From Planctomycetota bacterium (GTDB lineage Bacteria > Planctomycetota > JAJSAM01 > JAJVHW01): 64,000 bases of DNA. The DNA is taken from NCBI GenBank assembly GCA_965248445.1, contig CBDFJG010000001.1, forward strand, positions 192,001 to 256,000, in the 5' to 3' direction. A program made the translations under genes and the position numbers. Shown one piece after another: positions 1 to 60,197 of the stretch. The notes under the pieces were generated by a model. That model was not told where the DNA came from and did not search any database. It saw only the letters and a program-made list of their open reading frames with translations. Position 1 is the stretch's first letter, and every line of letters starts with the position of its first letter.

Positions 1-1461
1 CGGTGCACGCGTCGGCGTCGATCTGCACCTGCCCCTGGCGATCACGCGAATCGCACCGAACTTGCACGCCAGCATGCAGTCGGGGACTTTGCAGTTGTAG
101 CAAGACGAAGTGAGCAGCAGGTCGCCGTAGCGAATCCCCCGTTTGCCGATCCGCGGAATGCGATCGTCGTGCGCCTCGATGCAGCCCGTCACGCACATGT
201 TGCAGTGCGTGCACTTGCTCATGTCGATCACGAGCGCATCACCCGCCTTGATGACCTCGTGCTCGGTGCCGATCTCGGTCGCGCGCTCGCGCGCCTTCGC
301 GTCGTCGGGACTTGGGTTCTCCGTCTCGATCAACTGCCGCACCCGCGCGAGGACCGTGGCCTTTACCTCCGGGTGGGCTTCGAGGAGCGCCAGGAACGGC
401 TCGCGCGGGATGCGCACCAGATCCATGCGATCCACGGCCTCGACGGCCGAACCGCGCGGCGTGTCTCCGAGCAGCGCCAGCTCACCGAAGAACGAGTTCT
501 CGCAGAGCCACGCGACGATTTCCTCGTCGTCCCCGGTCGTGCGAATCACACGCGCGTGACCCGTGCGAACGAGGAAGAACGCGTCACAGGGCGCTCCCTG
601 CTCGACGACGGCCTCGCCCTTCTCCGCCACGATCAGCTCAGCGACGCGTCCGATCTCGCGCAGTACGCGGCGAGACAGTCCGCGGAACAGCGCTACCGAG
701 CCGAGGTGGTTCTCCAGAGCGCGCTCGCGATAGGCGTCGTCGATACGCGTCTTGAACGCGGTGCTCTTTCGATCGCCGTAGCACTTCATGAACACGTGCC
801 GCGGGAGTTGGAGCACGAGAGCCTCGCCCTCGGCGAGGACCGTTGCGTTGCGAGGCGCGTGCGACATGCAACTCATCTCGCCGAACCAGTTCCCCGAACT
901 CAGCGTGCCGAGGTAGTTGCGGTCGCCAGCCTCGGCCTTGTAGACGCCGACGGTCCCGTCGAGCAGGACGAAGAACTCCGAGGTGTACTCCCCCTCCCGG
1001 CAGATCTCAGCGCGCGACGAGAACGCGCGGAACTGCCCTTCCGCCGCGACGGCACGAACCATGCCCGGCGTCAGCCCGCCGAAGACGTCGAGCGCCGCGA
1101 GGTGGGCCTCCTGCGATCCCTCCGCGAACGTCGCGGGCTCCGGGGCACCTGCGGCCGCGGGTGGCACCGGCTGCCCCGACGGCTGCGGCAGGCCCGGCGG
1201 TTTCGGAGTGCCCGGCGGTTTGGGCGGACCGGGTGGCGTCGGCGCACCGGGTGAGCTCGGCGGCCCCGGCGGCACTGGGAGCTTCGGGGGTTTCGGCGCG
1301 CCGGACGGCGGCGGCGGTGCCGGGGGCGGCGGCGCGCCTGGAGGCTTCGGTGGACCGGGAGGCGTCGGTGGACCGGGAGGCTTCGGCGGACCGGGAGGCT
1401 TCGGAGGACCGGGGGGACCCGCGCTTGCGTCGTCGGGGCGATCGGCGTCGTCTGCGCCCAC
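1..1461 (-). CDS. Cyclic-nucleotide-binding (2x cNMP) / 4Fe-4S dicluster protein with Pro-rich N-terminus; runs off the window start
   Basis: Manual translation from GTG at 1461, 1 nt after the upstream stop: MGADDADRPDDASAGPPGPPKPPG... Two phosphate-binding cassettes (WFGEMSCMSHAPRNATVLA; FFGELALLGDTPRGSAVEA) are followed by CTHCNMCVTGC and CYNCKVPDCMLACKFGAI. Absent from the ORF track because no stop lies in the window. Probable 1-nt deletion near position 45. Confidence 0.9.
   Translation of the reverse strand, partial: MGADDADRPDDASAGPPGPPKPPGPPKPPGPPTPPGPPKPPGAPPPPAPPPPSGAPKPPKLPVPPGPPSSPGAPTPPGPPKPPGTPKPPGLPQPSGQPVPPAAAGAPEPATFAEGSQEAHLAALDVFGGLTPGMVRAVAAEGQFRAFSSRAEICREGEYTSEFFVLLDGTVGVYKAEAGDRNYLGTLSSGNWFGEMSCMSHAPRNATVLAEGEALVLQLPRHVFMKCYGDRKSTAFKTRIDDAYRERALENHLGSVALFRGLSRRVLREIGRVAELIVAEKGEAVVEQGAPCDAFFLVRTGHARVIRTTGDDEEIVAWLCENSFFGELALLGDTPRGSAVEAVDRMDLVRIPREPFLALLEAHPEVKATVLARVRQLIETENPSPDDAKARERATEIGTEHEVIKAGDALVIDMSKCTHCNMCVTGCIEAHDDRIPRIGKRGIRYGDLLLTSSCYNCKVPDCMLACKFGAIRVIARGRCRSTPTRAP
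1340..1420 (-). repeat. 18-nt tandem repeat encoding (GPPKPP)n in the Pro-rich N-terminus
   Basis: About 4 imperfect copies of ggtggaccgggaggcttc; the Pro-rich tract extends to about 1150. Confidence 0.8.
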
Positions 1462-1462
1462 G

Positions 1463-2521
1463 TCAGTACCAAATCACCTGGAACACGTGCACTGCGATGA
1501 CGCCGAAGAGCAGCAGCGAGAGCGGGATGTGAATCCACTTCCACACGACGAGCATGCGATCCAACCGGACGGCCGGTGCGGTCACCTCCCGCAGGCGGTC
1601 ACGGGACGCTGCCATGACCGCGAGATCGCGAATCAAGGAAGCAGACTCCGGATGGGCCGGAGCGACCTCATCGAGGACGACCGCATTGCGCCGCGCGATG
1701 GCCGCCTGCGAACGCGCCGTCTTGCGCAGCGGAGCCAGTGCTGTCCGCAGCGGTTCGTCGAGCGTGGCGAGGATGCCGGTCACGCACTGGTGATACGTCG
1801 CCCGCGCGACGCCCGCTTCCTCATACGGAATGCCGGGATCGGCGCGTGAGAGCGCCGGAGGCACGAAGCGGTAGGCCACCGCACCGAACACGCCGGAGAT
1901 CAGGATCAGCGACGAGAGTGTGACCAGCGCCCAGCCGACGTGGTGCCAGACCATCAGGTCCGCGTGCAGCCACACCCCAAGGCACGCGGTGACACCGACG
2001 CCCATGTGCGCCTCGAGCCATGCCTCGAGACGTCCCAACGGCTCGCGACGCACGAGCCGTACGACGCGCACCGTTCGGTCCTGCACGCGCAACGCGGAGA
2101 GCGTCGCCCGCTGGGCGCGATCCACACCGTGATGCACCAGCACCTTGTGGGCCGCCTCGAGGACGCGCTCGTCGCTGGCATAGGCACCGGCGAGGACCTT
2201 GCGATTGACGTCCTGCACGCCCGCCCACGCCGCATCGGTCTGCTCGGGTGTGCGCCGGCCCATGTCACGGACCACGCGCAGCTTGATGCACCACTTTCGC
2301 GCGCTGAAGAGCGCCGCGACGATGAACAGTGCGAGCAGGACGTTGCCCGACCAGAGAAACCAGGTTCGCTCGTCGCCGGGTGATCCGCGAGCCGGCAGAG
2401 CCACGAGAGCCCAGCCGGTGGCGAACGGGATCATCGTCAGTGCCAGCCAGAGCCAAGCGCGCGGTCGCCCGAGGAACCGCACACCGAAGCGGCGGCCGGA
2501 CAGAGTGATCGCGTCGCTCAC
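1463..2521 (-). CDS. Polytopic membrane protein with four His in/near TM helices (ferric-reductase/cytochrome-b-like)
   Basis: GTG at 2521 overlaps the cytochrome stop (GTGA); about 6 hydrophobic segments; WLEAHMGVG, WLHAD, WKWIHIPLS, AVHVFQVIWY. Confidence 0.7.
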   Translation of the reverse strand: MSDAITLSGRRFGVRFLGRPRAWLWLALTMIPFATGWALVALPARGSPGDERTWFLWSGNVLLALFIVAALFSARKWCIKLRVVRDMGRRTPEQTDAAWAGVQDVNRKVLAGAYASDERVLEAAHKVLVHHGVDRAQRATLSALRVQDRTVRVVRLVRREPLGRLEAWLEAHMGVGVTACLGVWLHADLMVWHHVGWALVTLSSLILISGVFGAVAYRFVPPALSRADPGIPYEEAGVARATYHQCVTGILATLDEPLRTALAPLRKTARSQAAIARRNAVVLDEVAPAHPESASLIRDLAVMAASRDRLREVTAPAVRLDRMLVVWKWIHIPLSLLLFGVIAVHVFQVIWY

Positions 2522-4677
2522 TCCCCGAGGTTCCTCAGGTAGCCGCGTGGCTCGCGCCGGTGGCACGTCATGCACGTCCGACCCTGGCCGCCCGGGTCTC
2601 CCTCCGGCTTGTCGATGCGCGGGTCGTTGAACCATGCGTCGGCGAACTGCGGATCGTCGTGGATGCTGCTCGTGACCTTCGCGCGCGTGATCCTTTCCTG
2701 GTACGCCGACCCCTCCTGGTACGACGACCCCTGCTGGTACGACGACCCCGAGGCGGACGAGGACCGCTCGTGACACGCAGCGCACGCGCCCGTGCGGTCG
2801 TGCCACTGCGTTCCCGGCAAGAGGTCGATGTGGACGCGGGTGCGCGGCTGATGCGCCGGAGCCGCGTCCCCGACCGGCCACGCACCGCCGTGGCAATGGG
2901 CACAGCGCGTCGCCTCCTCGCGCGACGCCGCGACGCCGGTGCGCCCGAACTTCTGCGTGTCGGCCGGATCGTGCCCGTGGCAACGCGTGCAGTCCGCAAC
3001 GTCCGCCGGGACGTGGTATCCGGTGTCACCGCCGGGCTCGTGGCAGGTGGTGCAGGGGATGCCGTCCGGCGCGCCGATGTACGTCTTGGCCGAGGCGTGC
3101 GATCGGTGGTCGAACTGTGGGACGACGGCCGAAACCCGCCGCACGCCGAGTTCCCCGGGCAGCGCTCCCGCGTGGCAGTCGAGGCATCCACGCGGATCGA
3201 TGCCGGCCCGAGCTGGGCCGACACGTTCCACGTGGGTGTCGAAGCGGGAGAGATCCTCGCTCCACGATGTCGTGGCTGCCGTCGCGTGGCAACCGAGGCA
3301 CTCCGCTGAGGTCGGGAGATCGCTGACGTGCGGTGCGTGGTCGAACGTGCGCCCGGTAAGGCGCGACGGCACGGTCTCGTTGTCCGCGACGTGACAGTCG
3401 CTGCACGTCTTCCCGTCCGGCTGGGAGTCGTCGACGAGCACCGCACCGTTCGTCGTCACTCCGGGATGCGCATGCACGCCGAACGCGACGGCTTCGACGT
3501 CGTCCCGTTCGACCCGGGCGGTCGCGACGGCGAGGGCGCCGTCCGCCTCGAGATCTCCCGAGTGGCACTTGAAGCAGGCCCACGCGCCGACTCCGTGATT
3601 CGCCACACTCCATGTAGCGTGACACGGCGCGCAGGCGCGGTACTCGATCAGCTCTGCGCGGCCCACCGGCTCGGTCGAATTGCTGCCCGAACCTCTGCCG
3701 GAACCGCTGCGCAGGGGGAAGAGCGAGGCAGCCGCCGCATCCGTCTCCGGGAAGTGGCAAGTCCGGCATCCCGCTGTCACGGCGCCGCTCGTCTCCACGG
3801 TCCCGGCCGGCACAAGATGCGCACTGTGGGGAAAGCGGTCGAACGCGACGTATGGCAACTTGCTCGTCCGGGCGGGCGTCGCCACGCCCGCTAGCGCCGT
3901 ACCCGCCGCGTCGGCAACGTGGCAGGCGGAGCAGCGATCGCGGGTGTCGGTCGCGGGGTCGTAGTCCCAGATGGTCTGACTTGCGCGGATGCCCGCATGG
4001 CAGTCGTCGCACTCCGCCGCCGCGCCGCCGTGATCAGCGTGAAGGAACGGGCGCACGCCCGCGGCCGTCGAGCGCGCTGCCCGGTAGCGCTGTGGGAGGA
4101 TCGACGTCGCGCCCTGGTGGCACGCGGCGCAGCGGCGGCCGTCTCCCGTGACGCCGTCCTGCGTGACCAGCCCCCCGGCGGGTTCATGCTCCGCGTGGCA
4201 GTCCGCGCACGTTCGCGTCCCCAACGCACCCCCCGGCGAGCCGCCGTGACCGCGCGGCCCGAGCCCGCCCGCGGGCACCGAGAACTCGACCCAGTCGTAC
4301 TCGACCTTCATCCGGTGGCAGTCGAAGCAGGTGATCGACTCGTCGCGCAGGTGGGATGCGTGCGGGAATGGCGTGCGCGGACCGTGCGGTGCTGCTCGCT
4401 CGACGACCAGGTGCGCGTCGTCCTGATGGCACTGCGCACACCCACTCAGGTGCGTCTCCTCGCCCCCCGTGTAGTCGTGACACACGCGGCACTCGGAGTC
4501 GTCCGGATCGCCGCGGTCGGCCGCGAACGCTAGCCCGCGGTCGACCGTGGCCGCCGACAGGTGCGGAGCGTGCGGGAAGCTGTACGGGCCCTCCGCGCGC
4601 AGCGTGATCACCGGCACCGTGACCACGACCGCCGCCGCTACGAGAAGAGCGCCGGTAACCGTGATGCGAAGCTTCAT
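2518..4677 (-). CDS. Exported multiheme cytochrome c (18 CxxCH), cytochrome c3/c7-like repeats
   Basis: ATG at 4677 overlaps the upstream stop (ATGA); N-terminal signal/anchor MKLRITVTGALLVAAAVVV; 18 CxxCH counted; recurring FxHxxH distal-ligand motifs (FPHAPH, FPHASH, FLHADH, FPHSAH, FDHAPH, FDHRSH). Confidence 0.93.
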   Translation of the reverse strand: MKLRITVTGALLVAAAVVVTVPVITLRAEGPYSFPHAPHLSAATVDRGLAFAADRGDPDDSECRVCHDYTGGEETHLSGCAQCHQDDAHLVVERAAPHGPRTPFPHASHLRDESITCFDCHRMKVEYDWVEFSVPAGGLGPRGHGGSPGGALGTRTCADCHAEHEPAGGLVTQDGVTGDGRRCAACHQGATSILPQRYRAARSTAAGVRPFLHADHGGAAAECDDCHAGIRASQTIWDYDPATDTRDRCSACHVADAAGTALAGVATPARTSKLPYVAFDRFPHSAHLVPAGTVETSGAVTAGCRTCHFPETDAAAASLFPLRSGSGRGSGSNSTEPVGRAELIEYRACAPCHATWSVANHGVGAWACFKCHSGDLEADGALAVATARVERDDVEAVAFGVHAHPGVTTNGAVLVDDSQPDGKTCSDCHVADNETVPSRLTGRTFDHAPHVSDLPTSAECLGCHATAATTSWSEDLSRFDTHVERVGPARAGIDPRGCLDCHAGALPGELGVRRVSAVVPQFDHRSHASAKTYIGAPDGIPCTTCHEPGGDTGYHVPADVADCTRCHGHDPADTQKFGRTGVAASREEATRCAHCHGGAWPVGDAAPAHQPRTRVHIDLLPGTQWHDRTGACAACHERSSSASGSSYQQGSSYQEGSAYQERITRAKVTSSIHDDPQFADAWFNDPRIDKPEGDPGGQGRTCMTCHRREPRGYLRNLGE

Positions 4678-5684
4678 CGCGTGACGAGGTACACCACGGC
4701 CGCGATCGCTACCGTCAGCAGAATCAGGACGATGCCGAGCACCCACTTGGACGAACCGACCGCGCGCGCGGACGGCGCGACGGCGGCGATGGCGTCCCGC
4801 TGGCGATGGAGTTCGCACCATTGCGCGGGCGTCAGGAGGCCCCGCTCGACGAGCAGGTCACCGACGTCGCGCTGCTCGTCGCGATGGGCCGCCAGCACCT
4901 CGTCACCCTGATGGACGGTCGCCCGGCCCTGCGCCACGACGTGGCGCACGAGCGCGCCCGCCAGGGGATCCTCCGTGCGGCCGCCGGAAGGTGGCCGCGT
5001 CACGAAGAGGCAGTCCACCGTCCCGAAAGTCACCGGCGTGTGAGGCGGCAGCGTCGTCCAGCCGGAGGTCCGGCTGCCCGCCACGAACGTACCGTTCGAC
5101 GAGTCGAGGTCACGGACCTCGAATCTGCCCTCGGCATACCGAATAGCCGCGTGGCGGCCGGAAATCGACGCGTGCGACACGGCGATCTGGCAGGTCTTTG
5201 CGTCGCGGCCGACGGTCATCTCCATCTCGGTGAGCGGGATGGATCTCCTGTCGTGCTCGGCGGCGATCACGAGGCGGGCCTCGGCCGCCTTGAACCGCGC
5301 GATGGCAACCAGCCCGGTGTGGCCCGCCGCGGGCCCGCCGAGGATTGTCTCTCCTGTCGAGCTGTGGAACTCGGATGCCACGCCATCTGCGGCGTGTGCA
5401 ACGACCTCGACGACCGTTCGCCCGAGCGACAGTTTGTTGCCGCGCGCGAATGCCACGGGATGGCCGGGGCGCAGGCGCTCAGAACCGTCGAGCACGGTCC
5501 CGTTCGTCGAGTCGAGGTCCTCGGCTTCGAGCCCTCGCCCGCGGGGGCGGATCGCGAGGTGCCGTGAGGAGAGCTCCTCGTCGTCGATGGCGACGTCCGC
5601 ACCACGCGAGCGCCCGATCACGACCTCTTGATCGATCTCGCGCTCGTCGCGAACAACCCCCTCAACCGAGATCCGGATGCGCAT
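4674..5684 (-). CDS. Tandem FHA-domain protein with MshEN-like segment and C-terminal TM anchor
   Basis: MRIRISVEG start; two FHA motifs (GR..SSRH..DLDSTNGT; GR..SGRH..DLDSSNGT); RDVGDLLVERGLLTPAQW; C-terminal WVLGIVLILLTVAIAAVVYLV. Confidence 0.85.
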   Translation of the reverse strand: MRIRISVEGVVRDEREIDQEVVIGRSRGADVAIDDEELSSRHLAIRPRGRGLEAEDLDSTNGTVLDGSERLRPGHPVAFARGNKLSLGRTVVEVVAHAADGVASEFHSSTGETILGGPAAGHTGLVAIARFKAAEARLVIAAEHDRRSIPLTEMEMTVGRDAKTCQIAVSHASISGRHAAIRYAEGRFEVRDLDSSNGTFVAGSRTSGWTTLPPHTPVTFGTVDCLFVTRPPSGGRTEDPLAGALVRHVVAQGRATVHQGDEVLAAHRDEQRDVGDLLVERGLLTPAQWCELHRQRDAIAAVAPSARAVGSSKWVLGIVLILLTVAIAAVVYLVTR

Positions 5685-5832
5685 CTCTCGGGTCTCGACC
5701 TCCCGTGGCGAGCGCCCCAGGCTGTGCGTGTCGGCAGCGGCTCGTGTCGCCGGTCGGACTTTCTCGGTTCGGCGAGACGCGGCGTGCGCCGAAATGCGCT
5801 CGGGCGACGCTCCCCCATCGTATCCTGCGCTC

Positions 5833-7758
5833 GTGGCGAAGGCGAGACTGACGATCACAGGCGATCAGGCCGAAGCTCGTAACATCGAGTTCGACGGTGA
5901 GGTCGTGATCGGCCGCTCCCCGCGAGCCAACATCCAAATACTCGGAGACCTCGTCTCGAGACAGCATGCCCGGTTCGCGTTCCGCGAGGGCAAGTGGCGG
6001 TTCGAGGATCTCGGCAGCCGGAACGGATCGCTCGTCAACGGGGAGAGCGCGACCGAAGCGATCCTCCGCACCGGCGACGTGGTCATGATCGGCTACGGAC
6101 GCATCGAGTTCGAAGCGCTCGGCGATCCCGGCACCACGTCGATCTCCGTCGACCTCGTGGACGCCGAGGCCTCCCTCGACAGAGCGCTCGTGGCTGAGGA
6201 GGACGACGGGTCGACGAACGCGACCGTCGCACTGTCGTACCAGAACCTCGTCGCCATCAACGAGCGGCTGTCGACGATCGCCCGCATCAGTAGCAACCTG
6301 GCAACCGTTCTCGACCGCCAGGCCCTCCTCGGGCAAGTGCTCGACACGCTCTTCGACCTGTTCGAGCAGCTCGACCGAAGCGCCGTCGTGGTGCGCGACG
6401 ATCTCGGCTCCTTCCGGGTGGACGCAACCCGGCAACGCAGCTCGGCCGACGATTCGGTGATGCGGATCTCGACGTCGCTGATCCAGTTCGTGCAGCGCGA
6501 AGGCAAGGCGGTTCTTTCAGAGGATACGGCGCACGACGACCGGTTCTCCGGCAAGGACAGCATCGTCGCTGCGGGCGGCCGCTCGATCATGTGCGCCCCG
6601 CTCCTCGCAAAGGATGAGTTCCTCGGTGTCATCTACCTCGACACGGCGTCGCTCAGCCAGCCGTTCGCGTTCCAGGACCTGAACCTGCTGCAAGGGATCG
6701 CCGGCCCGATGGCGATCTTCCTCAAGAACGCGGAGCTGATCTCCCAGATCGAGGACGAAACCCGCATTCGGACGAGCCTCTCCCGCTACCTCTCGCCCGA
6801 CGTCGTCTCACAGACCGGCGACGGAACCCTCGACGCGAACCTCGGCGGAGAGATGGTCACAGGAACCGTGATGTTCAGTGACATCGTCGGGTTCACGGCG
6901 ATGGCGGAACGGCTGCCGCCGGTCGAGGTCGTGGACCGCCTGAACCGGTACTTCACGTCGATGCTGCACGCGATCTTCGGCTGGGAGGGAACCGTCGACA
7001 AGTTCGGTGGCGACGCGATCCTCGCGGTGTGGGGAGCACCGCTCGCCAACGCCGATCACGCACGCATGGCGACCGCGGCAGCACTCGACATGCAGGCGCG
7101 CCTGTTCGATCTGAACCTCGCATTGCACGAAGCCGGTGAGCCCAGCATCCGCATGGCGCTCGGCCTGAACTCGGGCAAGTTCGTCGCCGGGAACATCGGG
7201 GGCGAGGACCGCATCGAGTGGACGATCATCGGTGACGCGGTCAACACGGCGCAGCGCGTCGAGGCGCAGGGATTCCCGGGCGGAGTTCTGGTCGAGGGGT
7301 CAACGTGGGACGGACTCGGCGACGACGCCGGCGCATACGCGTTCCCTGCGGTACGCGTGAAGAACCGCGACACACCCGTTCACGTGTTCAGCGTGCGCAC
7401 CCTCCGCGGCCCGCACGGTGTGACCGCAGCCATCCCCGTCATCGTCACCTGGGGCGACGAGGCCGGCGACGGCATGCTCAACGGCGCAGTCCTCGACGAT
7501 CGCGACATCGCCGGACTCCGCATCCACATGGGTGCCGAGCCGGCACTGGGGCCGATCACGGTCTCCGCGATCCTCCCCGAGGTACCCGAGGGGTTGTCGA
7601 TGGACGGCACCGTGACGCACGTCGATCCGCTACCCGGTTCGGAGACCGGGCGAATCGTCACGGTCGAGGTCGAGGAGATGGACGAGGAACTGGGCTGGCT
7701 GCTCAACGCAGAGGGCGCGCGCAACTCGAGCCGCACGCTCGGGGAGATCGGACGATGA
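5833..7758 (+). CDS. FHA-GAF-class III adenylate cyclase
   Basis: FHA (IGRSPRA..VSRQHA..DLGSRNGS), GAF (SIMCAPL..GVIYLD), cyclase motifs MFSDIVGFT, VDKFGGDA, WTIIGDAVNTAQRVE (Lys/Thr pair consistent with ATP substrate); start chosen at GTG 5833. Confidence 0.92.
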   Translation: MAKARLTITGDQAEARNIEFDGEVVIGRSPRANIQILGDLVSRQHARFAFREGKWRFEDLGSRNGSLVNGESATEAILRTGDVVMIGYGRIEFEALGDPGTTSISVDLVDAEASLDRALVAEEDDGSTNATVALSYQNLVAINERLSTIARISSNLATVLDRQALLGQVLDTLFDLFEQLDRSAVVVRDDLGSFRVDATRQRSSADDSVMRISTSLIQFVQREGKAVLSEDTAHDDRFSGKDSIVAAGGRSIMCAPLLAKDEFLGVIYLDTASLSQPFAFQDLNLLQGIAGPMAIFLKNAELISQIEDETRIRTSLSRYLSPDVVSQTGDGTLDANLGGEMVTGTVMFSDIVGFTAMAERLPPVEVVDRLNRYFTSMLHAIFGWEGTVDKFGGDAILAVWGAPLANADHARMATAAALDMQARLFDLNLALHEAGEPSIRMALGLNSGKFVAGNIGGEDRIEWTIIGDAVNTAQRVEAQGFPGGVLVEGSTWDGLGDDAGAYAFPAVRVKNRDTPVHVFSVRTLRGPHGVTAAIPVIVTWGDEAGDGMLNGAVLDDRDIAGLRIHMGAEPALGPITVSAILPEVPEGLSMDGTVTHVDPLPGSETGRIVTVEVEEMDEELGWLLNAEGARNSSRTLGEIGR

Positions 7759-7795
7759 CCGCGGCGACCCGATCGTCGTGGCGCCGGACGGGCTG

Positions 7796-8554
7796 ATGCG
7801 GATCCGCGTCCTCGGCTGCAGCGGGGGCAGCGCCAAGGGCGCAGAGCCATCGTGCTATCTGTTCGAGCACGGGGTCTCCGTGGACGCCGGCGCGCTCGCC
7901 GCAACGCTCACACTCGAGGAACAGCGCGCGGTCACGGACGTCTTCGTGACGCACTCGCACTGGGATCACGTCCGCGACCTGCCGCTCACTACGATCAACC
8001 GGACGCCCGACACACCGACCCTGAACGTGCACGGACTGTCGCAGACGATCGAGGCACTTCGAACTCACCTCATGAACGACGTCATGTGGTTCCCCGCGTT
8101 CGACGTGCCGTCCGCCGACACGCCGTACGTGGCGCCGACCGTCATCGCACCTGGCGAGACCCGCGCCGTGAACCGGTACCGAGTGACCGCCGTGCCGATG
8201 CAGCACTCCGTGCCGGCGATCGGATACCTCCTCGATGACGGAACGGTCTCGGTGCTGATGTGTGCGGACACCGTCGGTGGCGGCGCCTGCCGCGACCTCC
8301 CCCGGGACGCGAGCCCCCTCGCCGCGGTCTTCATCGAGGCGTCCTTCCCGAACCGGATGCGCGCGTTCGCCGAGATGACCGGTCACCTCACACCCGAGAT
8401 GATGGCGGCCGAGTGCGCCCACCTGCCCGCCGACGTGAAGGTGTTCGCCACGCACATGAAGCCGGGGTTCGAGGCGGAGATCACGGCCGAGGTCGCCGCG
8501 CTGGACCGCCCCGGCGTGCGCCCAGCGGTGGGTGGTGAGGAACTGGTCTTCTGA
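7796..8554 (+). CDS. 3',5'-cyclic nucleotide phosphodiesterase, class II (metallo-beta-lactamase fold)
   Basis: MRIRVLGCSGG, VDAG, THSHWDHV, MQHSVPAIGY, CADT, IEASFPN, GHLTP, THMKP; directly downstream of the cyclase. Confidence 0.85.
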   Translation: MRIRVLGCSGGSAKGAEPSCYLFEHGVSVDAGALAATLTLEEQRAVTDVFVTHSHWDHVRDLPLTTINRTPDTPTLNVHGLSQTIEALRTHLMNDVMWFPAFDVPSADTPYVAPTVIAPGETRAVNRYRVTAVPMQHSVPAIGYLLDDGTVSVLMCADTVGGGACRDLPRDASPLAAVFIEASFPNRMRAFAEMTGHLTPEMMAAECAHLPADVKVFATHMKPGFEAEITAEVAALDRPGVRPAVGGEELVF

Positions 8555-8913: not shown

Positions 8914-9834
8914 ATGTCCATCACACCCCAGGTCCGCGAAATCCTCTCGTGGTACCCCGCGGACAACGCGGGCACGAAGTCCAACATCGCCCGGCTGCTG
9001 ATGACCGGACGCCTGGCCGGCACGGGCAAGCTCGTGATCCTGCCGGTCGACCAGGGCTGCGAGCACGGCCCGGACCGCTCGTTCCTGCCGAACCCCGCGG
9101 GCTACGACCCCACGTATCACCCCGACCTCGCGGTGGAGGCCGGGTGCAACGGTTACGCGGCTCCGCTCGGCGCGATCGAGGCGGCAGCGGACCGCTACCC
9201 CGGTGTGCTCCCGCTCATCCTCAAGGCGAACAACAGCGACGGCATGGGTGGGCCCGGCGACCCCTGGCCGGCGGTCACGGGATCCGTCGAGGACGCCGTG
9301 CGGCTCGGCTGCTCAGGGATCGGGTTCACGATCTACCCGGGGTCGGACTACCGCAACGACATGTACGGCGAGATCCGTGAGATGGCCGCCGACGCCAAGG
9401 CGCACGGTCTCGCCGTCGTCATCTGGTCGTATCCGCGCGGGAGCGGGCTGGACAAGAAGGCGGAGACGGCCGTCGACGTGATTTCGTACGCCGCGCACAT
9501 GGCCTGCCAGCTCGGCGCTCACCTCGTGAAGGTCAAGCCGCCGACGGATCACGTGAACCAGGACCAGTGCCGGAAGCTCTACGAGGAGCACGGCGTCGAA
9601 CTGGACACGCTCGAGAAGCGCATCCGTCACGTCGTCCGGGCCACGTTCGGCGGGCGGCGCATCGTGATCTTCTCCGGCGGCGCCGCGAAGGGCCGCGACG
9701 CGGTCCTCGAGGAGATCCGCCAGATCAACGCCGGCGGCGGCTTCGGGTCGATCGTCGGTCGCAACTCGTTCCAGCGTACGAAGGAGGATGGCGTCGCCCT
9801 CCTGAACGAGATCATGGACATCTACTCCGGCTGA
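8914..9834 (+). CDS. fbaB: Class I fructose-bisphosphate aldolase
   Basis: ILPVDQGCEHGP, WSYPRG, AHLVKVK (Schiff-base Lys), SGG, SIVGRNSFQR. Confidence 0.92.
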   Translation: MSITPQVREILSWYPADNAGTKSNIARLLMTGRLAGTGKLVILPVDQGCEHGPDRSFLPNPAGYDPTYHPDLAVEAGCNGYAAPLGAIEAAADRYPGVLPLILKANNSDGMGGPGDPWPAVTGSVEDAVRLGCSGIGFTIYPGSDYRNDMYGEIREMAADAKAHGLAVVIWSYPRGSGLDKKAETAVDVISYAAHMACQLGAHLVKVKPPTDHVNQDQCRKLYEEHGVELDTLEKRIRHVVRATFGGRRIVIFSGGAAKGRDAVLEEIRQINAGGGFGSIVGRNSFQRTKEDGVALLNEIMDIYSG

Positions 9835-9973
9835 ACCGAGTTCCTGATCTCTGTCGCGGTCGAGCGGCGCGGAACCCTGACAAGCACTGCTTTTCCCCTT
9901 CGCTTTCTCCGAGGCAGTCCTGCGAGCCGCGTAGCATGTGCGACCCGATCGGAACCCCCTGGGAGCTCACCAG

Positions 9974-11791
9974 ATGACCGCCGAGACCTCCGCCCCCGCG
10001 GCCGTGCGCACGCTCGTGAACGACTTCACGATCAACGTCGCGACCGTCAACGGCACCGGGAGCCAGACCGCCAACAACACGCTCATCCGCGCGATCATGC
10101 GCATGGGCATTCCGGTCAGCGGGAAGAACCTGTTCCCGTCCAACATCCAGGGGCTTCCGACGTGGTACGTCATCCGCGTCTCCGAGGCTGGGTGGCTCGC
10201 TCCGACCCCCACCATGGAGGTCGTGATCTGCATGAACCGGACGACCGCGCGGGACGACGTCATGAAGGCGCCGCCCGGAGCGTGGGTGATCTACGACGCG
10301 CCGTTCAAGCTCGACACGCTGCGCGACGACGTGCGCTTCTTCCCTGTGCCGTTCTCCGGCGTCGTGAAGGCCGTCGCACCTCCGAAGCTGTGGCGGCTCG
10401 TGCAGAACATGGTCTACGTCGGTGTCGCCGCGCAACTGCTCGGAATCGACCTCGTTCGGATCGACGCGTCGCTCGACAAGTTCTTCGCCAAGAAGCCCAA
10501 GGCCGCCGAGGTCAACAAGGCCGCCGTCCGCGCGGGGATCGCGTACTCCGAAGAGCACTTCGGGGACACGCCGCCGGCGTACCGCGTCGAGCCGCGCAAC
10601 CTGACGGACGGCAAGGTACTCATCGACGGCAACTCGGCAGCCGGGCTCGGCGCGCTGATGGCGGGCTGCACGGTGCTGACGTGGTACCCGATCACGCCGT
10701 CGTCGTCGCTGGCCGAGGCGTTCGAGGAGTACTGCAACCAGTATCGTCACGGAGAGGACGGCCAGGCCCGCTACGCGATCCTCCAGGCGGAGGACGAACT
10801 CGCCGCAATCGGCATGGTGATCGGCGCGGGCTGGGCCGGAGCGCGCGCGATGACGACGACGTCCGGTCCGGGCATCTCGCTGATGAGCGAGTTCATCGGG
10901 CTCTCGTACTACGCCGAGATCCCCGCAGTCATCGCGAACGTGCAGCGCGTCGGACCCTCCACCGGACTGCCGACCCGCACCGCGCAGGGTGACATTCTGT
11001 TCTGCGCATACAACTCGCACGGCGACACCAAGCACCCGCTCGTCCTTCCCGCGTCGCCGCAGGAAGCGTACGAGTTCATGATGGCGGCGTTCGACATCGC
11101 CGAGCGCTTCCAGACGGTGTGCTTCTTCGTCTCCGACCTCGATCTCGGGATGAACAACTGGCTGGCGGACCCGTTCCCCTACCCGACCGCCGACCTCGAC
11201 CGGGGGAAGGTCCTCTCGAACGAGAAACTCGCCGAGATCGGGCTCGAGAACTGGGGCCGCTACAAGGACCTCGACGGCGACGGGGTCCCGTGGCGTTCGC
11301 TACCGGGACAGGAGCTCGACGGCGCGGCGTTCTTCACGCGCGGGAGCGGCCACAACGCCTACGCCCGCTACACGGAGAGCGGCGAGGCGTACGTCGAGAA
11401 CGTCGACCGACTGAGCCGCAAGTTCGACTCGATGCGCAGTTACATGCCGGCTCCGATCGAGGACCCGGCGCCGGACGGCAGCAAGGTCGGTGTCATCGCC
11501 TACGGCACGACCCACTGGGCGATCCTCGAGGCGCGGGTCGAACTGTTCGAGCAGCACGGTGTGCGCTTCGACTACATGCGCCTCTGCGCCTACCCGTTCG
11601 CCGACTCCGTGCGGACGTTCATCGAAGCCCATGATGTCGTGTACGTCATCGAGCAGAACCGCGACGCCCAGATGCTCACCCTGATCCGTAACGACATGCC
11701 GGATCTCACCGGCAAGACCCGCAGCGTCGTCAACTACGACGGCATGCCCATCTACGCACGTGCCGTCGTCGACGGACTTCTCGCGGACTAG
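9974..11791 (+). CDS. korA: 2-oxoacid:acceptor (ferredoxin) oxidoreductase alpha subunit (gamma-alpha fusion)
   Basis: FPSNIQG, WYPITPSS, QAEDELAA, TSGPG, QRVGPSTGLPT; 2-oxoacid specificity not determinable. Confidence 0.9.
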   Translation: MTAETSAPAAVRTLVNDFTINVATVNGTGSQTANNTLIRAIMRMGIPVSGKNLFPSNIQGLPTWYVIRVSEAGWLAPTPTMEVVICMNRTTARDDVMKAPPGAWVIYDAPFKLDTLRDDVRFFPVPFSGVVKAVAPPKLWRLVQNMVYVGVAAQLLGIDLVRIDASLDKFFAKKPKAAEVNKAAVRAGIAYSEEHFGDTPPAYRVEPRNLTDGKVLIDGNSAAGLGALMAGCTVLTWYPITPSSSLAEAFEEYCNQYRHGEDGQARYAILQAEDELAAIGMVIGAGWAGARAMTTTSGPGISLMSEFIGLSYYAEIPAVIANVQRVGPSTGLPTRTAQGDILFCAYNSHGDTKHPLVLPASPQEAYEFMMAAFDIAERFQTVCFFVSDLDLGMNNWLADPFPYPTADLDRGKVLSNEKLAEIGLENWGRYKDLDGDGVPWRSLPGQELDGAAFFTRGSGHNAYARYTESGEAYVENVDRLSRKFDSMRSYMPAPIEDPAPDGSKVGVIAYGTTHWAILEARVELFEQHGVRFDYMRLCAYPFADSVRTFIEAHDVVYVIEQNRDAQMLTLIRNDMPDLTGKTRSVVNYDGMPIYARAVVDGLLAD

Positions 11792-11807
11792 TCGAAAGGA
11801 AGCCCTC

Positions 11808-12887
11808 ATGGCCGAACTTCCGAAGCTGCCAGGTGCTCCGAGTCTCCCCGGCGGCGGAAAGCCGAAGGGTCCGGCCAAGAACCGGCTCGGGATGGTGCAG
11901 AACGAATACAAGGGCACGGATTCGACGCTCTGCAAGGGCTGTGGACACGACGCCATCACGGCGGCCATCGTCCGCGCGTTGTGGGAGAACGCCGAGAACC
12001 CGTTGAAGGTCGCCAAGATGAGCGGCATCGGTTGCTCGTCGAAGACGACGGCGTACTTCCTCTCGCGATCCTGGGGCTTCAACTCGGTACATGGCCGCAT
12101 GCCGTCGGTCACCACCGGCGCCATGCTCGGCAACCGCACGCTGCTGGCGGTCGGGGTCTCCGGCGACGGCGACTCGGCGTCCATCGGCATGGGCCAGTTC
12201 GTGCACGTGATGCGCCGCAACCTCCCGATGACCTACATCGTCGAGAACAACGGCGTGTACGGGCTCACCAAGGGCCAGTTCAGCGCCACGGCGGACCACG
12301 GCGCGAAGTCGAAGTACGGAGAATCGAACGAGTTCGAGGCGATCGACCTCTGCGGACTCGCTCTCGAGCTCGGCGCCACGTTCGTCGCCCGCAGCTACTC
12401 CGCCGACCGAAAGCAGCTGATCCCAATCCTGCGGGCGGCTCTCGACCACCACGGCACCGCCCTGGTGGACGTCATCTCACCATGCGTCACGTTCAACAAC
12501 CACGCCGGCTCCACCAAGTCGTACGACTGGGGCAAGGAGCACGAGGAGCCGATCCACGAGATCGGATACGTGAACGACTGGGACCTGGGCACAGTCGAGT
12601 ACGAGGAGGGTGGATCGATCCGGGTCGACATGCCCGACGGCGGCGAGTTGCAGCTCACCAAGCTGGCCCGCGACCACGATCCGCGCAATCTGCAGGCGGC
12701 AAAGGCGTTGCTGGCCGAGTCGAAGGGCCGCGGGGAGTTCCTCACGGGGATCTTCTACATCGACGAGTCGAAACCCAATCTGCTCGAGAACCTGAAGATG
12801 GTCGAACGGCCCCTCTGCGAGCTGGGCGCGGCCGACCTCCGCCCCAGCGAAGACGCCCTCCACGAGATCATGGAGTCGTTCCGGTAG
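11808..12887 (+). CDS. korB: 2-oxoacid:ferredoxin oxidoreductase beta subunit
   Basis: CKGCGHD, SGIGCSS, HGR, GDGD...NNGVYGLTKGQ (TPP-binding), SPCVTFN. Confidence 0.9.
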   Translation: MAELPKLPGAPSLPGGGKPKGPAKNRLGMVQNEYKGTDSTLCKGCGHDAITAAIVRALWENAENPLKVAKMSGIGCSSKTTAYFLSRSWGFNSVHGRMPSVTTGAMLGNRTLLAVGVSGDGDSASIGMGQFVHVMRRNLPMTYIVENNGVYGLTKGQFSATADHGAKSKYGESNEFEAIDLCGLALELGATFVARSYSADRKQLIPILRAALDHHGTALVDVISPCVTFNNHAGSTKSYDWGKEHEEPIHEIGYVNDWDLGTVEYEEGGSIRVDMPDGGELQLTKLARDHDPRNLQAAKALLAESKGRGEFLTGIFYIDESKPNLLENLKMVERPLCELGAADLRPSEDALHEIMESFR

Positions 12888-12930
12888 GGGCGCGCGCTGC
12901 GCGCTCCGCTACCGGAACGAACGTCTGCGT

Positions 12931-13426
12931 CACGCGGATCGCTCAAGCGATCCGCGCGCCGCGACCCGCGTGCCTGGCGGCACGGTGTTGTCTCCCTCCT
13001 ACGCGGTCTCCGACGGCTACGGAGGGCTGCGGTCACGGCGCTCGCTACGCGACCCCCGCGCCCTCGCAGTCCGCTACATCGAGAGAGACGTCGCTGTAGG
13101 GGCGGGGCGCTGCCCCGCCCGCGAATGGGCCGGGTCGTTTCACCCTCGCGGGAAACGGTGCCCCGCAACTCGCAGAGCGCGCTCGGTCTCGTCAGTTCGA
13201 CTCCGCCGGTGTACTCCGCGCGCGATGCATGCGCGGGCGCAGCGGCCCGCCGGTACTTGGTGTTACGCGGCGATGCTGCGGATCGGGAGGGCGTGGGGGT
13301 TGCAACGCAATACCCATGACCGACCTCCTCCGTAGCGTCCGGAGGACGCGTAGGAGGGACACGATTCGTGCCGTCAGGCACGCAGGTCGTGGCACGCTGA
13401 TCGCGGAGCGATCAGCGTGCCACGAC
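12931..13426. repeat. REP/REPIN-like intergenic element: ~150-nt imperfect inverted repeat pair with internal hairpins
   Basis: 12931-13081 is an imperfect reverse complement of 13271-13426; core TCCCTCCTACGCG...GCTACGGAGG; GTAGGGGCGGGGCGCTGCCCCGCCCG palindrome at 13096-13121; 19-bp stem at 13386-13426. Confidence 0.75.
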
Positions 13427-13443
13427 AATCAGGCCTACGTCGC

Positions 13444-14736
13444 TCAGCGCGCGTCGATCGGTTCGACCGATCGATCGCGCTCGCCGACGTAGACCTGTCT
13501 GGGCCTCGCGATCTTCTGCTCCTTGTCGCCCATCATCTCGTTCCACTGCGCGACCCAGCCCGGCGTGCGGCCGATGGCGAAGAGCACCGTGAAGTACGCC
13601 GGATCGAAGCCGAGCGACTGGTAGATGAGGCCGGAGTAGAAGTCGACGTTCGGGTACAGGTTGCGCGCCTTGAAGTACTCCTCGGCGAGCGCGATGCGCT
13701 CGAGCTCGACGGCCACGTCGAGGAGCGGGTTGCGCCCTGTCTTCGCGAAGACCTCGTGCGCGATGCCCCCGATGATGCGGGCCCGGGGGTCGTAGCTCTT
13801 GTAGACGCGGTGCCCGAAGCCCATCAGCTTGGCTTCCTTGTCCCGCACGCGCTGCATGTACGCGGGGATGCCGGTCGCATCACCGATCTCGGCCAGCATG
13901 CGCAGGACCGCCTCGTTCGCCCCGCCGTGCAGGGGTCCCGAGAGCGATGCGACGGCGGCGGCCGCCGCCGCGTAGGGAGTGGCCTCAGCGCTGCCGACCA
14001 CGCGCATCGTGCTCGTCGAGCAGTTCTGCTCGTGGTCACCGTGCAGGATGAACAGAACGTCGAGCGCGTGCGCGAGAACGGGGTCCGGATCGACGTCGCC
14101 GTCCTCGGACCCGACCATGCGTAGGAAGTCGGCTGCGTAACCGAGCTCCGGCCGCGCGGCAATGGGCTGCCAGCCCTGCCGGTACCGCCAGACCGCGGCG
14201 GCCAGCAACGGCATCTGCGCGATCAGCTTCCGCGTGCGCATCGAGCGCGCTTCGGGATCGCGAACACGTGTTGCGTCGACATCGTGCGCACCGAGGGCGA
14301 CCAGGACTCCCATCAGCATGCTCATGGGATGCGCGTCGCGCGGGAAGCCGTCGAGCGTGCGCTCGAGACCCGAGGGCAGTGAACCGTACGAGGCGAGTTC
14401 GCTGCCGAACGCATCGAGCTGCGCGCGATTCGGCAGATCGCCCTCGAGCAATGCGTAGCACACCTCGACGAACGAAGTGCCCTCGGCCAGCTGCTCGATC
14501 GGATAGCCGCGGTACTGCAGGACGCCGCGGGCGCCGTCGATGTACGTGATCCGGCTGGTGCAGCACGCGGTGTTCTTGAATGCCGGGTCGTACGACATCA
14601 TCCCGAACTCGTCTTCGGTGACCTTCACCTCGCGCAGCCCCATGGCGGGCACGGTCGAGTTCGTGATCGGAAGCGCGTACTCACGGCCGGTGCGGCCGTC
14701 GCGGATCGTGAGGTTGTCCTGGCTGTCGTTGGGCAT
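13444..14736 (-). CDS. gltA: Citrate synthase
   Basis: YDPAFKNTA, LQYRGYPIEQLA, LHGDHEQNCST, GPLHGGAN, MGFGHRVYK, PNVDFYSG. Confidence 0.95.
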   Translation of the reverse strand: MPNDSQDNLTIRDGRTGREYALPITNSTVPAMGLREVKVTEDEFGMMSYDPAFKNTACCTSRITYIDGARGVLQYRGYPIEQLAEGTSFVEVCYALLEGDLPNRAQLDAFGSELASYGSLPSGLERTLDGFPRDAHPMSMLMGVLVALGAHDVDATRVRDPEARSMRTRKLIAQMPLLAAAVWRYRQGWQPIAARPELGYAADFLRMVGSEDGDVDPDPVLAHALDVLFILHGDHEQNCSTSTMRVVGSAEATPYAAAAAAVASLSGPLHGGANEAVLRMLAEIGDATGIPAYMQRVRDKEAKLMGFGHRVYKSYDPRARIIGGIAHEVFAKTGRNPLLDVAVELERIALAEEYFKARNLYPNVDFYSGLIYQSLGFDPAYFTVLFAIGRTPGWVAQWNEMMGDKEQKIARPRQVYVGERDRSVEPIDAR

Positions 14737-14974
14737 ACCGGAGGTCCGTTGCTTGTTCCGGACCACCGAGCACTGCAGCGAGCCGGGCATTGCAGGGGGC
14801 GGCGGTCCTGTGGTGGTCGGCAGCGGCGCTTCGCCGAAGCACGCCCAGAGATCTGACGGGCGGGTTCGGCGAGAGTTCCGTTGCCTCGATGTGGAACCGC
14901 TCAGTCTACTTGGGGCTTGCGGGGCGGCGCCGAGGATCCGGAGCCGGACAGGTGGGCCGAGGGTGACGAGAACC

Positions 14975-15850
14975 ATGCAGACAGCGGTTGACAGCCAGAC
15001 GAGCGAGGCCCGCCGGGGCCGGAACTTCGGTTTGCCTGCGCTCGGCGTGTCCGTGGGACTGCGGCGGCCGCACGTGGATCAGATCGTGGCGGAGCGCCCC
15101 GACCTGCCGTTCTTCGAGTTCGTGCCCGAGAACTACATGGACCGTGGTGGTCGCTCGCGGCGCACGCTGCTCTCGGTCGCCGCCCACTACAGCATGGTCA
15201 GCCACGGCGTCGGTCTCGGGATCGGCTCTGTGGACCCGCTCGACTGGGAGTACCTGCGCCGGCTCAAGCAGGTCGTGCAAGACGCGGGCGCCCTGTGGGC
15301 GAGCGACCACCTGTGCTGGAACCGCGCCGACGGCCGGTCGTCGAACGACCTGCTGCCGCTCCCGATGACCGGCGAAGCGGTGCGCCACACGGCCGCGCGT
15401 ATCCGTACGGTTGCAGAGTTCCTCGAGGTGCCGTTCCTGATCGAGAACATCAGCACGTACACGGTGCTGCCGGGCGCCGAGATGAGCGAGGCCGAGTTCA
15501 CCACCGCCGTGCTCGAGGAGGCCGATTGCGGCCTCCTGCTCGACGTCAACAACGTCTACGTGAACTCCCGAAACAACGGCATCGACCCGCACGCCTTCCT
15601 GCGCGGCATCCCCGCGCACCGCATCGGGCAGATGCACATGGCCGGCCACGACGACCAGGGCGACGTCTGCGTCGACTCGCACGGCGCGCCGGTGCGCGAC
15701 GAGGTCTGGGCGCTGTTCCGCGAGGCGCTGGCGATCTCCGGCCCGACCAGCGTGCTCATCGAGTGGGACACCAACATCCCGACGCTGGAGAGGCTCCTCG
15801 AAGAGCGCGCCACCGCACAGCGGATCTACAACGAGGTCGTGTCGTCGTGA
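14975..15850 (+). CDS. DUF692 family multinuclear non-heme iron oxidative enzyme (MNIO)
   Basis: GLRRPH, EFVPENY, HGVGLGIGS, SDHLCW, DLLPLP, LIENIS, LLLDVNNVYVN, HMAGH, DSHG, IEWD. Confidence 0.92.
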   Translation: MQTAVDSQTSEARRGRNFGLPALGVSVGLRRPHVDQIVAERPDLPFFEFVPENYMDRGGRSRRTLLSVAAHYSMVSHGVGLGIGSVDPLDWEYLRRLKQVVQDAGALWASDHLCWNRADGRSSNDLLPLPMTGEAVRHTAARIRTVAEFLEVPFLIENISTYTVLPGAEMSEAEFTTAVLEEADCGLLLDVNNVYVNSRNNGIDPHAFLRGIPAHRIGQMHMAGHDDQGDVCVDSHGAPVRDEVWALFREALAISGPTSVLIEWDTNIPTLERLLEERATAQRIYNEVVSS

Positions 15851-58576: not shown

Positions 58577-58652
58577 TGGCAGGACGCGAGGGACTCGAAC
58601 CCCCAACCGCCCGGTTTGGAACCGGGTGCTCTACCAATTGAGCTAGCGTCCT
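58577..58652 (-). tRNA. trnW: tRNA-Trp(CCA)
   Basis: AGGACGC/GCGTCCT acceptor stem, anticodon arm CCCGG-TTCCAAA-CCGGG, GTTCGAG, encoded CCA end. Confidence 0.96.
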
Positions 58653-58729
58653 CCAGTCGGACCGCCGACCGGGTGTCGGCTCCCCCGAACGAGCGCTACT
58701 TCTTCTTCTCGCCGGCCGTGGACACGGCC

Positions 58730-58894
58730 CTACTTCTTCTTCTCGCGGTGTTCGACGTGCTTCCGGCACGTCGAGCAGTACTTCGAGATGTTGAGCTTGT
58801 ACTCCGCCTTGGTCCGACGCGGCTTCCGGTAGTTCCGGTTGCCACAGTCGGGGCACTGCAGGCTCACCCACTCGCGGTTCGTTGCCTTTGCCAT
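58730..58894 (-). CDS. rpmG: 50S ribosomal protein L33 (Zn-binding C+ form)
   Basis: Manual translation MAKATNREWVSLQCPDCGNRNY...KYCSTCRKHVEHREKKK (54 aa; below the ORF-track cutoff). Confidence 0.95.
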   Translation of the reverse strand: MAKATNREWVSLQCPDCGNRNYRKPRRTKAEYKLNISKYCSTCRKHVEHREKKK

Positions 58895-58901
58895 CGGTGC
58901 C

Positions 58902-60104
58902 CTACTCGATGACCTCGGTCACGCGTCCGGCGCCAACCGTGCGACCACCCTCTCGGATGGCAAAGCGCACGCCCTGCTCCATCGCGATCGGCTGGATCAG
59001 CTCGACCGTGATCTCGATATTGTCACCCGGCAGCACCATCTGCGCACCGTGCAGGTCCGCAATGGCCCCCGTCACGTCCGTCGTACGGAAGTAGAACTGC
59101 GGGCGATAACCGGCGTTGAAGTGCGTGTGCCGTCCGCCCTCTTCCTTGCTGAGGATGTAGACCTGCGACTTGAACTTCGTGTGCGGGGTGATCGACTTGG
59201 GCTTCGCGAGCACCATGCCGCGCTCGATCTCGTCCTTGCCGACGCCGCGGAGCAACACGCCGACGTTGTCGCCGGCCTGGCCCGAGTCGAGCGTCTTCTG
59301 GAACATCTCGACGCCGGTGCAGGTCGTCGCCATCGGCTCCTCGCGGAGGCCGATGATGGCGATCGGGTCACCGGTCTTCACCATGCCACGCTCCACGCGA
59401 CCGGTCGCCACCGTGCCGCGGCCCTTGATCGAGAACACGTCCTCGACGGGCATCAGGAACGGCTTGTCGACCTCGCGCGCGGGCTCCGGGATGTAGGTGT
59501 CAAGCGCCTCGATGAGCTGGTAGATGGGCTGAGCAGCCGGGTCGTCCGCGCTCTCAGCGTTCAGCGCCGGGAGCGAGGCACCCTGGATCACAGGAGTGTC
59601 GTCGCCAGGGAACTCATAGGCGTCGAGCAGCTCGCGGACCTCGAGCTCGACGAGCTCGAGGAGTTCGTCGTCGTCGACCAGATCACACTTGTTGAGGAAG
59701 ACAACGATGAACGGGACACCGACCTGGCGGCCGAGGAGCACGTGCTCCTTCGTCTGCGGCATCGGGCCGGTGGACGCGTCGACCACCAGGATCGCACCGT
59801 CCATCTGCGCGGCGCCCGTGATCATGTTCTTCACGTAGTCGGCGTGACCCGGGCAGTCGACGTGCGCGTAGTGGCGCGTGTCGCTCTCGTACTCGACGTG
59901 CGCCACCGCGATCGTCACCGTCTTGCTGGCGTCACGCACGGTGCCGCCCTTGGCGATGTCGGCGTACTCCTTGAACTTCGCGAGACCCTTGAACTCGAGG
60001 CACTTCAGCATCGCTGCTGTGAGGGTGGTCTTGCCGTGGTCAACGTGGCCGATCGTCCCGACGTTCACGTGGGGCTTCGTGCGGACGAATGTTTCCTTCG
60101 CCAT
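58902..60104 (-). CDS. tuf: Elongation factor Tu
   Basis: [35 protein letters not shown]. Confidence 0.99.
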
Positions 60105-60197
60105 CTCTCCATCCTTCGGCGTCTTGCGCCCTCGTTTGGGGACCGTTCGACACGGGCCCTACGTTCCCTCAGTGGCGTCTGCGTTCGCTCAGTGGTG

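Follow-up and report, generated by a model that had tools for sequence, protein, structure and literature searches.

A predicted ptdEFG-type electron conduit in a planctomycete and its possible modulation by cAMP

Can cAMP act directly on electron flow across a bacterial membrane, by binding to the proteins that carry the electrons? The question is raised by a locus at the start of a 64,000-nt stretch of Planctomycetota DNA (the window; G000:C1:192001-256000), in which genes for multiheme cytochromes, a membrane protein and an iron-sulfur (FeS) protein with two cyclic nucleotide-binding (cNMP) domains lie next to genes for a cyclase and a phosphodiesterase (PDE). G000 is the genome analysed here (5.4 Mb, 92% complete); other G codes and the L codes denote fetched genomes and loci, and f codes denote families. 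Where cAMP is known to control electron transport in bacteria, it acts on transcription, via CRP. Built-in cNMP pockets, if they work as proposed below, would mean post-translational and fast gating of transmembrane electron flow. We propose, at about even chances and from sequence comparison, that an operon of five genes is a ptdEFG-type inner-membrane electron conduit, which cAMP from the neighbouring cyclase and PDE likely modulates through the two cNMP domains.

The core of this module is already in print. The main text on the ptdABCDEFG operon (bioRxiv 10.1101/2023.11.21.568154) describes PtdE as a cNMP-binding protein with 4Fe-4S clusters, PtdF as a ferric-reductase-like membrane protein and PtdG as a periplasmic multiheme (decaheme) protein; it counts Planctomycetes among the hosts and states the function as unknown. 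The main text on the NHC cluster of Ferrigenium straubiae (bioRxiv 10.64898/2026.01.22.701106) describes an FHA-1TM-nonaheme protein, a protein with five transmembrane (TM) helices and a [4Fe-4S] protein, expressed and of unclear function; it reports the 5-TM protein to be devoid of redox motifs and proposes that electrons are delivered to quinone. A first-pass annotation of the stretch had pointed to similar neighbourhoods in other bacteria, none of them known to be functionally characterised. The core does carry published names, ptdEFG and NHC. The new part is the comparative case for cAMP as the ligand.

Genes of the operon and the predicted electron path

The operon, numbered by window position unless a contig is given, consists of the following genes.

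1 to 1461, continuing to G000:C1:191669, minus strand: PtdE-like cNMP-FeS protein, frameshifted, with a Pro-rich arm, two cNMP domains and a four-motif 4Fe-4S domain
1463 to 2521, minus strand: PtdF-like membrane protein, 352 aa, five predicted TM helices; predicted di-heme b with His172/186 and His331/345
2518 to 4677, minus strand: 18-heme cytochrome c, 719 aa, N-terminal signal/anchor; 18 CxxCH motifs; PF14522/PF14537/PF02085
4674 to 5684, minus strand: FHA-FHA protein, 336 aa, C-terminal TM anchor (314-332); two PF00498 domains, E 4.5e-30
C1:191672-189636, outside the window, minus strand: fifth gene, PtdG/NHC-like, 678 aa, 15 CxxCH motifs, GTGA-coupled to the cNMP-FeS gene

The six genes claimed by the first-pass annotation (four here and the cyclase and PDE) are present as described, by sequence and Pfam, and the coupling of the four minus-strand genes is borne out by ATGA (4677/4674), GTGA (2521/2518) and 1-nt (1463/1461) junctions. 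The operon does not end with the fourth gene. Beyond position 1 there is no FAD/NAD(P) oxidoreductase, for which the annotation had suggested looking; a fifth coupled gene there encodes a product that combines a degenerate FHA-like head, a single TM helix and a 15-heme cytochrome c. We fetched 95 stretches around strong matches to the membrane gene (15 plus 80 chosen out of 190 matches) and mapped them with home-made profiles; one of them, L033, showed no membrane gene. The mapped loci are of two types. Type 1, with a cNMP-FeS gene or an FHA-FHA/17-18-heme layout, comprises 54 loci besides our own, and type 2 comprises 40 other membrane-protein loci, 38 of which have an NAD(P)H flavoprotein. 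The five-gene order is kept in many families of mapped loci, and the named records with close homologues are mostly Planctomycetota metagenome-assembled genomes (9 of 10).

The membrane protein is predicted, from sequence and model, to be a di-heme cytochrome b. The four His that had been likened to b-heme ligands are His172, His186, His331 and His345. A search returned 64 proteins including the query, and the four are invariant in all 61 that were aligned. Among 121 homologues chosen by length out of both match lists, three His are invariant and His345 is kept in at least 90%; Pfam matches of these members include DUF4405 (34), Ni_hydr_CYTB (15) and Ferric_reduct (13). An AlphaFold model (pLDDT 93.8) has five long helices fitting the hydrophobic segments, with the His pairs on the third and fifth helix. 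Fold and PDB-sequence searches with this protein gave no meaningful match: Foldseek had none at E<=0.001, and the best VIA hits (Z 9.5) were unrelated helical hairpins. The family is large and without assigned function; a wider profile collected 4223 clusters at 50% identity (E<=0.001), and within the phylum 119 of 401 genomes carry the gene.

The cNMP domains of the FeS protein lie at window positions 778-1029 and 373-627. Both contain the G-E-x8-R phosphate-binding cassette, as do both domains in 6/6 same-family copies, and in a model of the intact copy of G001 (pLDDT 78.6) the best Foldseek matches were PKA/PKG regulatory domains (E to 3.7e-21). Sixteen Cys are invariant among 29 cNMP-FeS homologues. 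These Cys, the four His across the 121 homologues, the di-heme-type Pfam matches and the five-gene order support the conduit that the annotation had suggested. The Pro-rich arm (window 1134-1461) consists of repeated PKPP/PTPP/PSPP units and varies in length among all family copies; it is possibly a docking tether for a kinase or an FHA domain. At two loci, L027 and L138, the cNMP domains are preceded by a fused FHA domain, and in L154 and L168 the two cNMP domains and the FeS domain are joined to the membrane domain in one frame, beside a tetraheme cytochrome and a flavoprotein.

The 719-aa cytochrome contains 46 His and 3 Met, and its 18 CxxCH motifs and N-terminal hydrophobic stretch (residues 5-23) agree with the exported 18-heme cytochrome of the first description. 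The count is 18 in 9/9 same-order copies and 17-18 in most others. Likewise, the FHA-FHA anchor protein has its two PF00498 domains and TM segment. What we take to be the FHA motif residues (G-R, S-x-x-H, N-G) are kept in the three FHA domains of this protein and the cyclase; they are not kept in the FHA-like head of the fifth gene.

Electrons would enter from a cytoplasmic low-potential donor, which the locus does not encode, and pass through four [4Fe-4S] clusters to two b hemes, one held by His172/331 near the cytoplasm and one by His186/345 near the periplasm. From there they would reach the anchored 15-heme and exported 18-heme cytochromes, and possibly an LVIVD decaheme/porin-like pair. 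The flow is probably outward, since in homologues (Sphingobium and 5/75 metagenome copies) the FeS protein comes fused with an NAD(P)H flavoprotein. By analogy with PKA regulatory subunits, bound cAMP would re-orient the tandem cNMP domains and thereby change access to the clusters or docking to the membrane protein. The FHA domains would couple cyclase and conduit to Ser/Thr phosphorylation. The LVIVD decaheme and the porin-like protein belong to the following group.

C1:176003-183632: probable partner trio, 6 kb past the fifth gene, of an HbpS-like protein, a porin-like hypothetical protein and an LVIVD-repeat 10-heme cytochrome

We infer the label "porin-like". The LVIVD cytochrome is present in 24/55 cNMP-FeS loci and in 15/40 other loci.

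Cyclase, phosphodiesterase and the case for cAMP

Divergently from the operon lie the following elements.

5685 to 5832, no strand: divergent intergenic region, with a conserved TATCCT-type hexamer (5821-5826) just before the GTG of the cyclase
5833 to 7758, plus strand: FHA-GAF-class III cyclase with a PilZ-like tail, 641 aa; motifs FSDIVGF, DKFGGD and EWTIIGDAVNTAQR; above the Pfam cut-off
7796 to 8554, plus strand: class II (MBL-fold) cyclic-nucleotide phosphodiesterase homologue, 252 aa; PF02112 at 45.2 bits, cut-off 23.7

The identities given earlier to both proteins hold, each being above its Pfam cut-off, and the divergent spacing described as about 150 bp is 148 nt between the starts at 5684 and 5833. 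The motif residues predict a class III adenylate cyclase: it keeps two metal Asp, the K/T specificity pair and the transition-state N and R, the roles of these residues and the meaning of K/T being those we assume for this class. Its best PDB matches are 2w01 and 6fht, and it is the sole PF00211 match in a profile search of G000. The PDE has an MBL fold with HxHxDH and a single PDB match, yeast Pde1 (4ojv, E 1.1e-5); class II PDEs gave one match in G000. The PDE start that agrees with relatives is ATG 7796, 37 nt past the cyclase stop, and the two genes do not overlap. The hexamer stands 6-9 nt ahead of the cyclase start in an alignment of 7 family sequences and may act as the -10 box for a leaderless transcript. 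An in-frame stop separates the GAF and catalytic domains in the cyclase of G007 (L019:5571-5573).

Input by c-di-GMP was also considered, through a degenerate MshEN-like segment ahead of the TM helix of the FHA-FHA protein (seen in an alignment; NF053729 weak, 15.8 bits vs a cut-off of 38) or through the PilZ-like tail (Atlas feature score 0.94; recognition under 2300, weak). It was rejected for its degenerate motifs and weak scores, and both segments are kept as leads.

Cyclase and PDE lie near the module in 7/7 same-family genomes, directly divergent in six and about 13 kb from the membrane gene in one. A cyclase is present in 12 of the 54 cNMP-FeS-type loci, vs 0.58 expected from the cyclase count of each genome, and in 0/40 other membrane-protein loci, for which no expectation was computed. 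The 12 linked loci represent five families: six are of our own family, one each is from G404, G088 and G348, and three are of one genus (f6, with a divergent cyclase). The linkage in G348, of different architecture, is perhaps chance. In a tree that left out G007 and G348, and in which long branches were flagged, the linked cyclases fall on three separate branches. Furthermore, a CpdA-like metallophosphoesterase (presumably so, by its motifs) follows the module in L044, L182, L183 and L214, all with both pockets intact; the flavoprotein-fused version occurs with a CpdA-like gene in Sphingobium herbicidovorans and three metagenome contigs.

The state of the pockets correlates with the presence of a cyclase. 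The pocket Arg is kept in at least one domain in 42/44 loci of cyclase-bearing genomes vs 0/5 loci of genomes without a PF00211 match. The latter five genomes are 90-94% complete, one of them a single contig, and have no Arg in either pocket. Of the seven Arg-less proteins, six group in one clade (95/86), and the seventh, L093, is on a long divergent branch. Five of the six hosts of the clade have no class III cyclase; in the sixth, G088, the sole cyclase and a PDE adjoin another module, L122, which is intact. Linkage and correlated loss together name cAMP as the candidate ligand, and the Arg-less clade supplies natural negative controls. In L205, where the pockets are degenerate, several Ser/Thr kinase genes and one for a four-FHA protein are interspersed among the genes of the module.

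A similar pairing involves another redox protein.

L222:5043-6641, L223, L226 and L233-L236: NDH-2-cNMP fusions beside a cyclase

In f71, which has 8 genomes, a homologous FHA-GAF cyclase lies tail-to-tail with an NDH-2-cNMP fusion, whose pocket is intact, in 7/7 fetched loci; a PDE is also present in 3 of the 7. NDH-2-cNMP fusions, often with CBS domains, make up the best 120 of 2428 matches. Tentatively, and as less likely than not, we extend our proposal to a general one: that cAMP may be a direct allosteric switch on bacterial respiratory electron flow, its FHA-GAF cyclase/PDE cassette being repeatedly paired with cNMP-fused redox proteins (the PtdE-type wire and NDH-2), and that cAMP-less lineages may have been rewired to Ser/Thr-kinase/FHA control.

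Several observations weigh against a conduit under cAMP control. Within the family, synteny is as strong for the aldolase gene as for the cyclase, so the six linked loci of our own family among the 12 count as one event. Outside it, a cyclase is found in just 1/21 five-gene-type loci (within the fetched stretch, several being cut by contig ends). The best 80 of 558 metagenome loci (788 kb, many short) contain 0 cyclases and 0 class II PDEs; 3 of these 80 carry a CpdA-like gene. The three linked cyclases of f6 have no DKF motif. Because the Arg-less proteins form one clade, their pockets point to a single loss event. Among 71 scorable metagenome copies both pockets are kept in 7, the first only in 30 and neither in 34; with about half of the wider homologues thus degenerate, cAMP would be an add-on and not the core. 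G000 and 3/4 tested genomes without a class III cyclase encode CYTH proteins, a group that includes some cyclases. Finally, no donor enzyme lies nearby, and no close homologue of a PtdC-like flavoprotein was found in G000.

These points bear on two alternatives. In the first, the conduit is real, its cNMP domains are structural or bind another ligand, and cyclase and PDE are syntenic neighbours serving the cNMP-kinase and cNMP-phosphatase of the cell. G000 has four cNMP domains, two in this operon and two elsewhere.

G000:C3:1563309-1564592: cNMP-Ser/Thr kinase
G000:C4:1262660-1263976: phosphatase-like-cNMP fusion

These two other receptors speak for the neighbours being incidental, as do the 34 of 71 metagenome homologues that keep the fold without the pocket Arg, the family synteny common to aldolase and korAB, and f2, in which cyclase, PDE and module are on separate contigs. 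Against it, linkage is seen again in four further families and with a phosphoesterase that is not homologous, and pockets persist in the presence of class III cyclases but are lost where a search found none. We consider this first alternative unlikely. The same receptors bear on the self-contained local circuit of the first-pass annotation. Its cAMP link is supported by the comparative evidence; its local nature is less so, since the only class III cyclase of the genome and two other cNMP receptors elsewhere suggest a pool that is likely cell-wide. By sequence, cAMP is best described as a regulatory add-on, lost by some lineages, among which L142-L146 and L151 carry a Ser/Thr kinase gene right after the operon.

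The second alternative, which we rate as less probable still, is a redox sensor in place of a bulk conduit: periplasmic hemes would set the redox state of the FeS clusters, which would alter cNMP affinity or FHA contacts and feed back on cAMP and phosphorylation. It would account for a locus and genome in which neither donor nor acceptor enzyme was found and for a cytoplasmic face with many signalling elements (FHA, Pro-rich arm, cNMP). The Ser/Thr kinase genes directly behind the operon in L142-L146 and L151 fit it too, and G000 has 56 kinase matches above cut-off. A sensor would, on the other hand, make costly use of the 33 c-hemes in the operon, and homologues have NAD(P)H flavoprotein domains, either as a fusion with the FeS protein or fused or adjacent to the membrane protein (38/40 other loci have one). 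We retain the cAMP-modulated conduit as our reading of intact copies.

A frameshift in the FeS gene

Does this reading also hold for G000 itself? The cNMP-FeS gene contains the following site.

46 to 47, minus strand: 1-nt deletion site, located by DNA alignment with 4 relatives and by a tblastn frame change

The first-pass annotation described two intact cNMP cassettes fused to a 4Fe-4S array. The two cNMP cassettes are intact; the 4Fe-4S array is broken by the 1-nt frameshift. The product as encoded in G000 has 8/16 cluster Cys, and the other 8 are in another frame, down to C1:191669; the 16 Cys of an NrfC/DmsB-type four-cluster protein are not in one reading frame in this product. In this fold each cluster draws ligands from two motifs. 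With 8/16 Cys kept and two motifs needed for each, the product probably holds no complete cluster. The FeS subunit of G000 is thus probably non-functional, which for this genome argues against the proposed conduit.

The same letters are found at the deletion in 4 Logan contigs (4 separately assembled runs of one sample), with 0 differences, 0 gaps and a depth of 4.8-11; the runs may be the source of the assembly itself, and the library is not on record. A true frame change was found by tblastn at just 2/36 matched places. The gene is intact in 7/7 fully covered same-order copies (6 same-family and 1 same-order). From these comparisons the frameshift is probably a real mutation. An assembly slip is less likely, the agreement of the 4 runs giving it no support. 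A frame difference against the radical-SAM-like gene of a relative was also seen at G000:C4:1846329.

A third alternative is, then, that the module of this strain is a decaying relic, whatever intact copies do, the frameshift removing half of the cluster ligands. The deletion reproduced in 4/4 runs and the rarity of frame changes among the 36 places favour it, as does the heme pathway: hemC (PF01379) was not found in G000, yet is present in 4/4 relatives, while hemB is present. Decay is harder to reconcile with the region behind the shift, whose conservation is close to that of the remaining protein (62-64% identity, all Cys), with the other six genes being intact and with the cytochrome c maturation genes present in G000; the runs, moreover, are of one sample and possibly the source of the assembly. 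On balance we find a relic somewhat the more plausible account of this strain.

Relation to known redox systems

The locus is not a full ptd operon and, by architecture, resembles its EFG core. Likeness to ptd and NHC was judged by architecture, and ptd was matched by description, not against the published Ptd sequences. The counterpart of PtdE agrees in architecture; it has four 4Fe-4S motifs here, vs two clusters in the main text of the ptd preprint, and is frameshifted in G000. A PtdF-type membrane protein stands beside it here too, and the position of the decaheme PtdG is taken by the 15-heme protein with an FHA-like head. The locus is without the PtdA pentaheme, the PtdC FAD/NAD(P) oxidoreductase and the PtdD tetraheme, and it adds the 18-heme cytochrome, FHA-FHA anchor, cyclase and PDE; its order is F-E-G, unlike ptd. 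Homologous loci with a penta/tetra/E/F/decaheme layout do occur in the mapped set (e.g. L099). The FHA-1TM-multiheme, 5-TM and 4Fe-4S trio of NHC is also found here, with 15 hemes instead of nine.

The main text on ptd (bioRxiv 10.1101/2023.11.21.568154) has no mention of a cyclase, cAMP or a phosphodiesterase, although its Tables S7 and S8 and Figure 4 could show such neighbours. Likewise, the main text on NHC (bioRxiv 10.64898/2026.01.22.701106) mentions no cyclase, phosphodiesterase or cyclic nucleotides, which its figures and supplements could show as neighbours. A search of open-access full text, which does not cover subscription papers, turned up no work on the control of this module by cAMP.

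A cultured, intact and donor-fused version exists in Sphingobium herbicidovorans MH (pMSHV, B6S01_RS18455-18440), with a cNMP2-FeS protein (WP_231568103) of 28% identity, a homologous membrane protein (hhalign probability 99.7), an FHA-decaheme protein and the HbpS/porin-like/LVIVD trio. It differs from ours in the fused N-terminal FAD/NAD(P) domain and the CpdA-like phosphoesterase, and a home-made profile found no cyclase in the 25-kb stretch. PKA/PKG regulatory subunits (PDB 5j3u, 3of1, 4z07) have similar tandem cNMP domains; the output here is an FeS domain and not a kinase. Redox modules of an NrfC/DmsB-type polyferredoxin and a di-heme cytochrome b share with the locus the four 4-Cys motifs and the four His of the membrane subunit, in two pairs 14 residues apart. 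Unlike such modules, the locus has no molybdo- or other catalytic subunit, a separate membrane family and tandem cNMP domains fused to the FeS protein.

Downstream of the PDE, window positions 8914-14976 hold homologues of aldolase, 2-oxoacid:ferredoxin oxidoreductase alpha/beta (korAB) and citrate synthase, names that we assign on presumed sequence motifs. korAB was considered as a dedicated donor and not adopted, its linkage being confined to the family (aldolase-korA is syntenic with cyclase-PDE inside the family only). An Rfam scan detected three tRNA genes only, on the minus strand at window 58580-60613, far from the locus.

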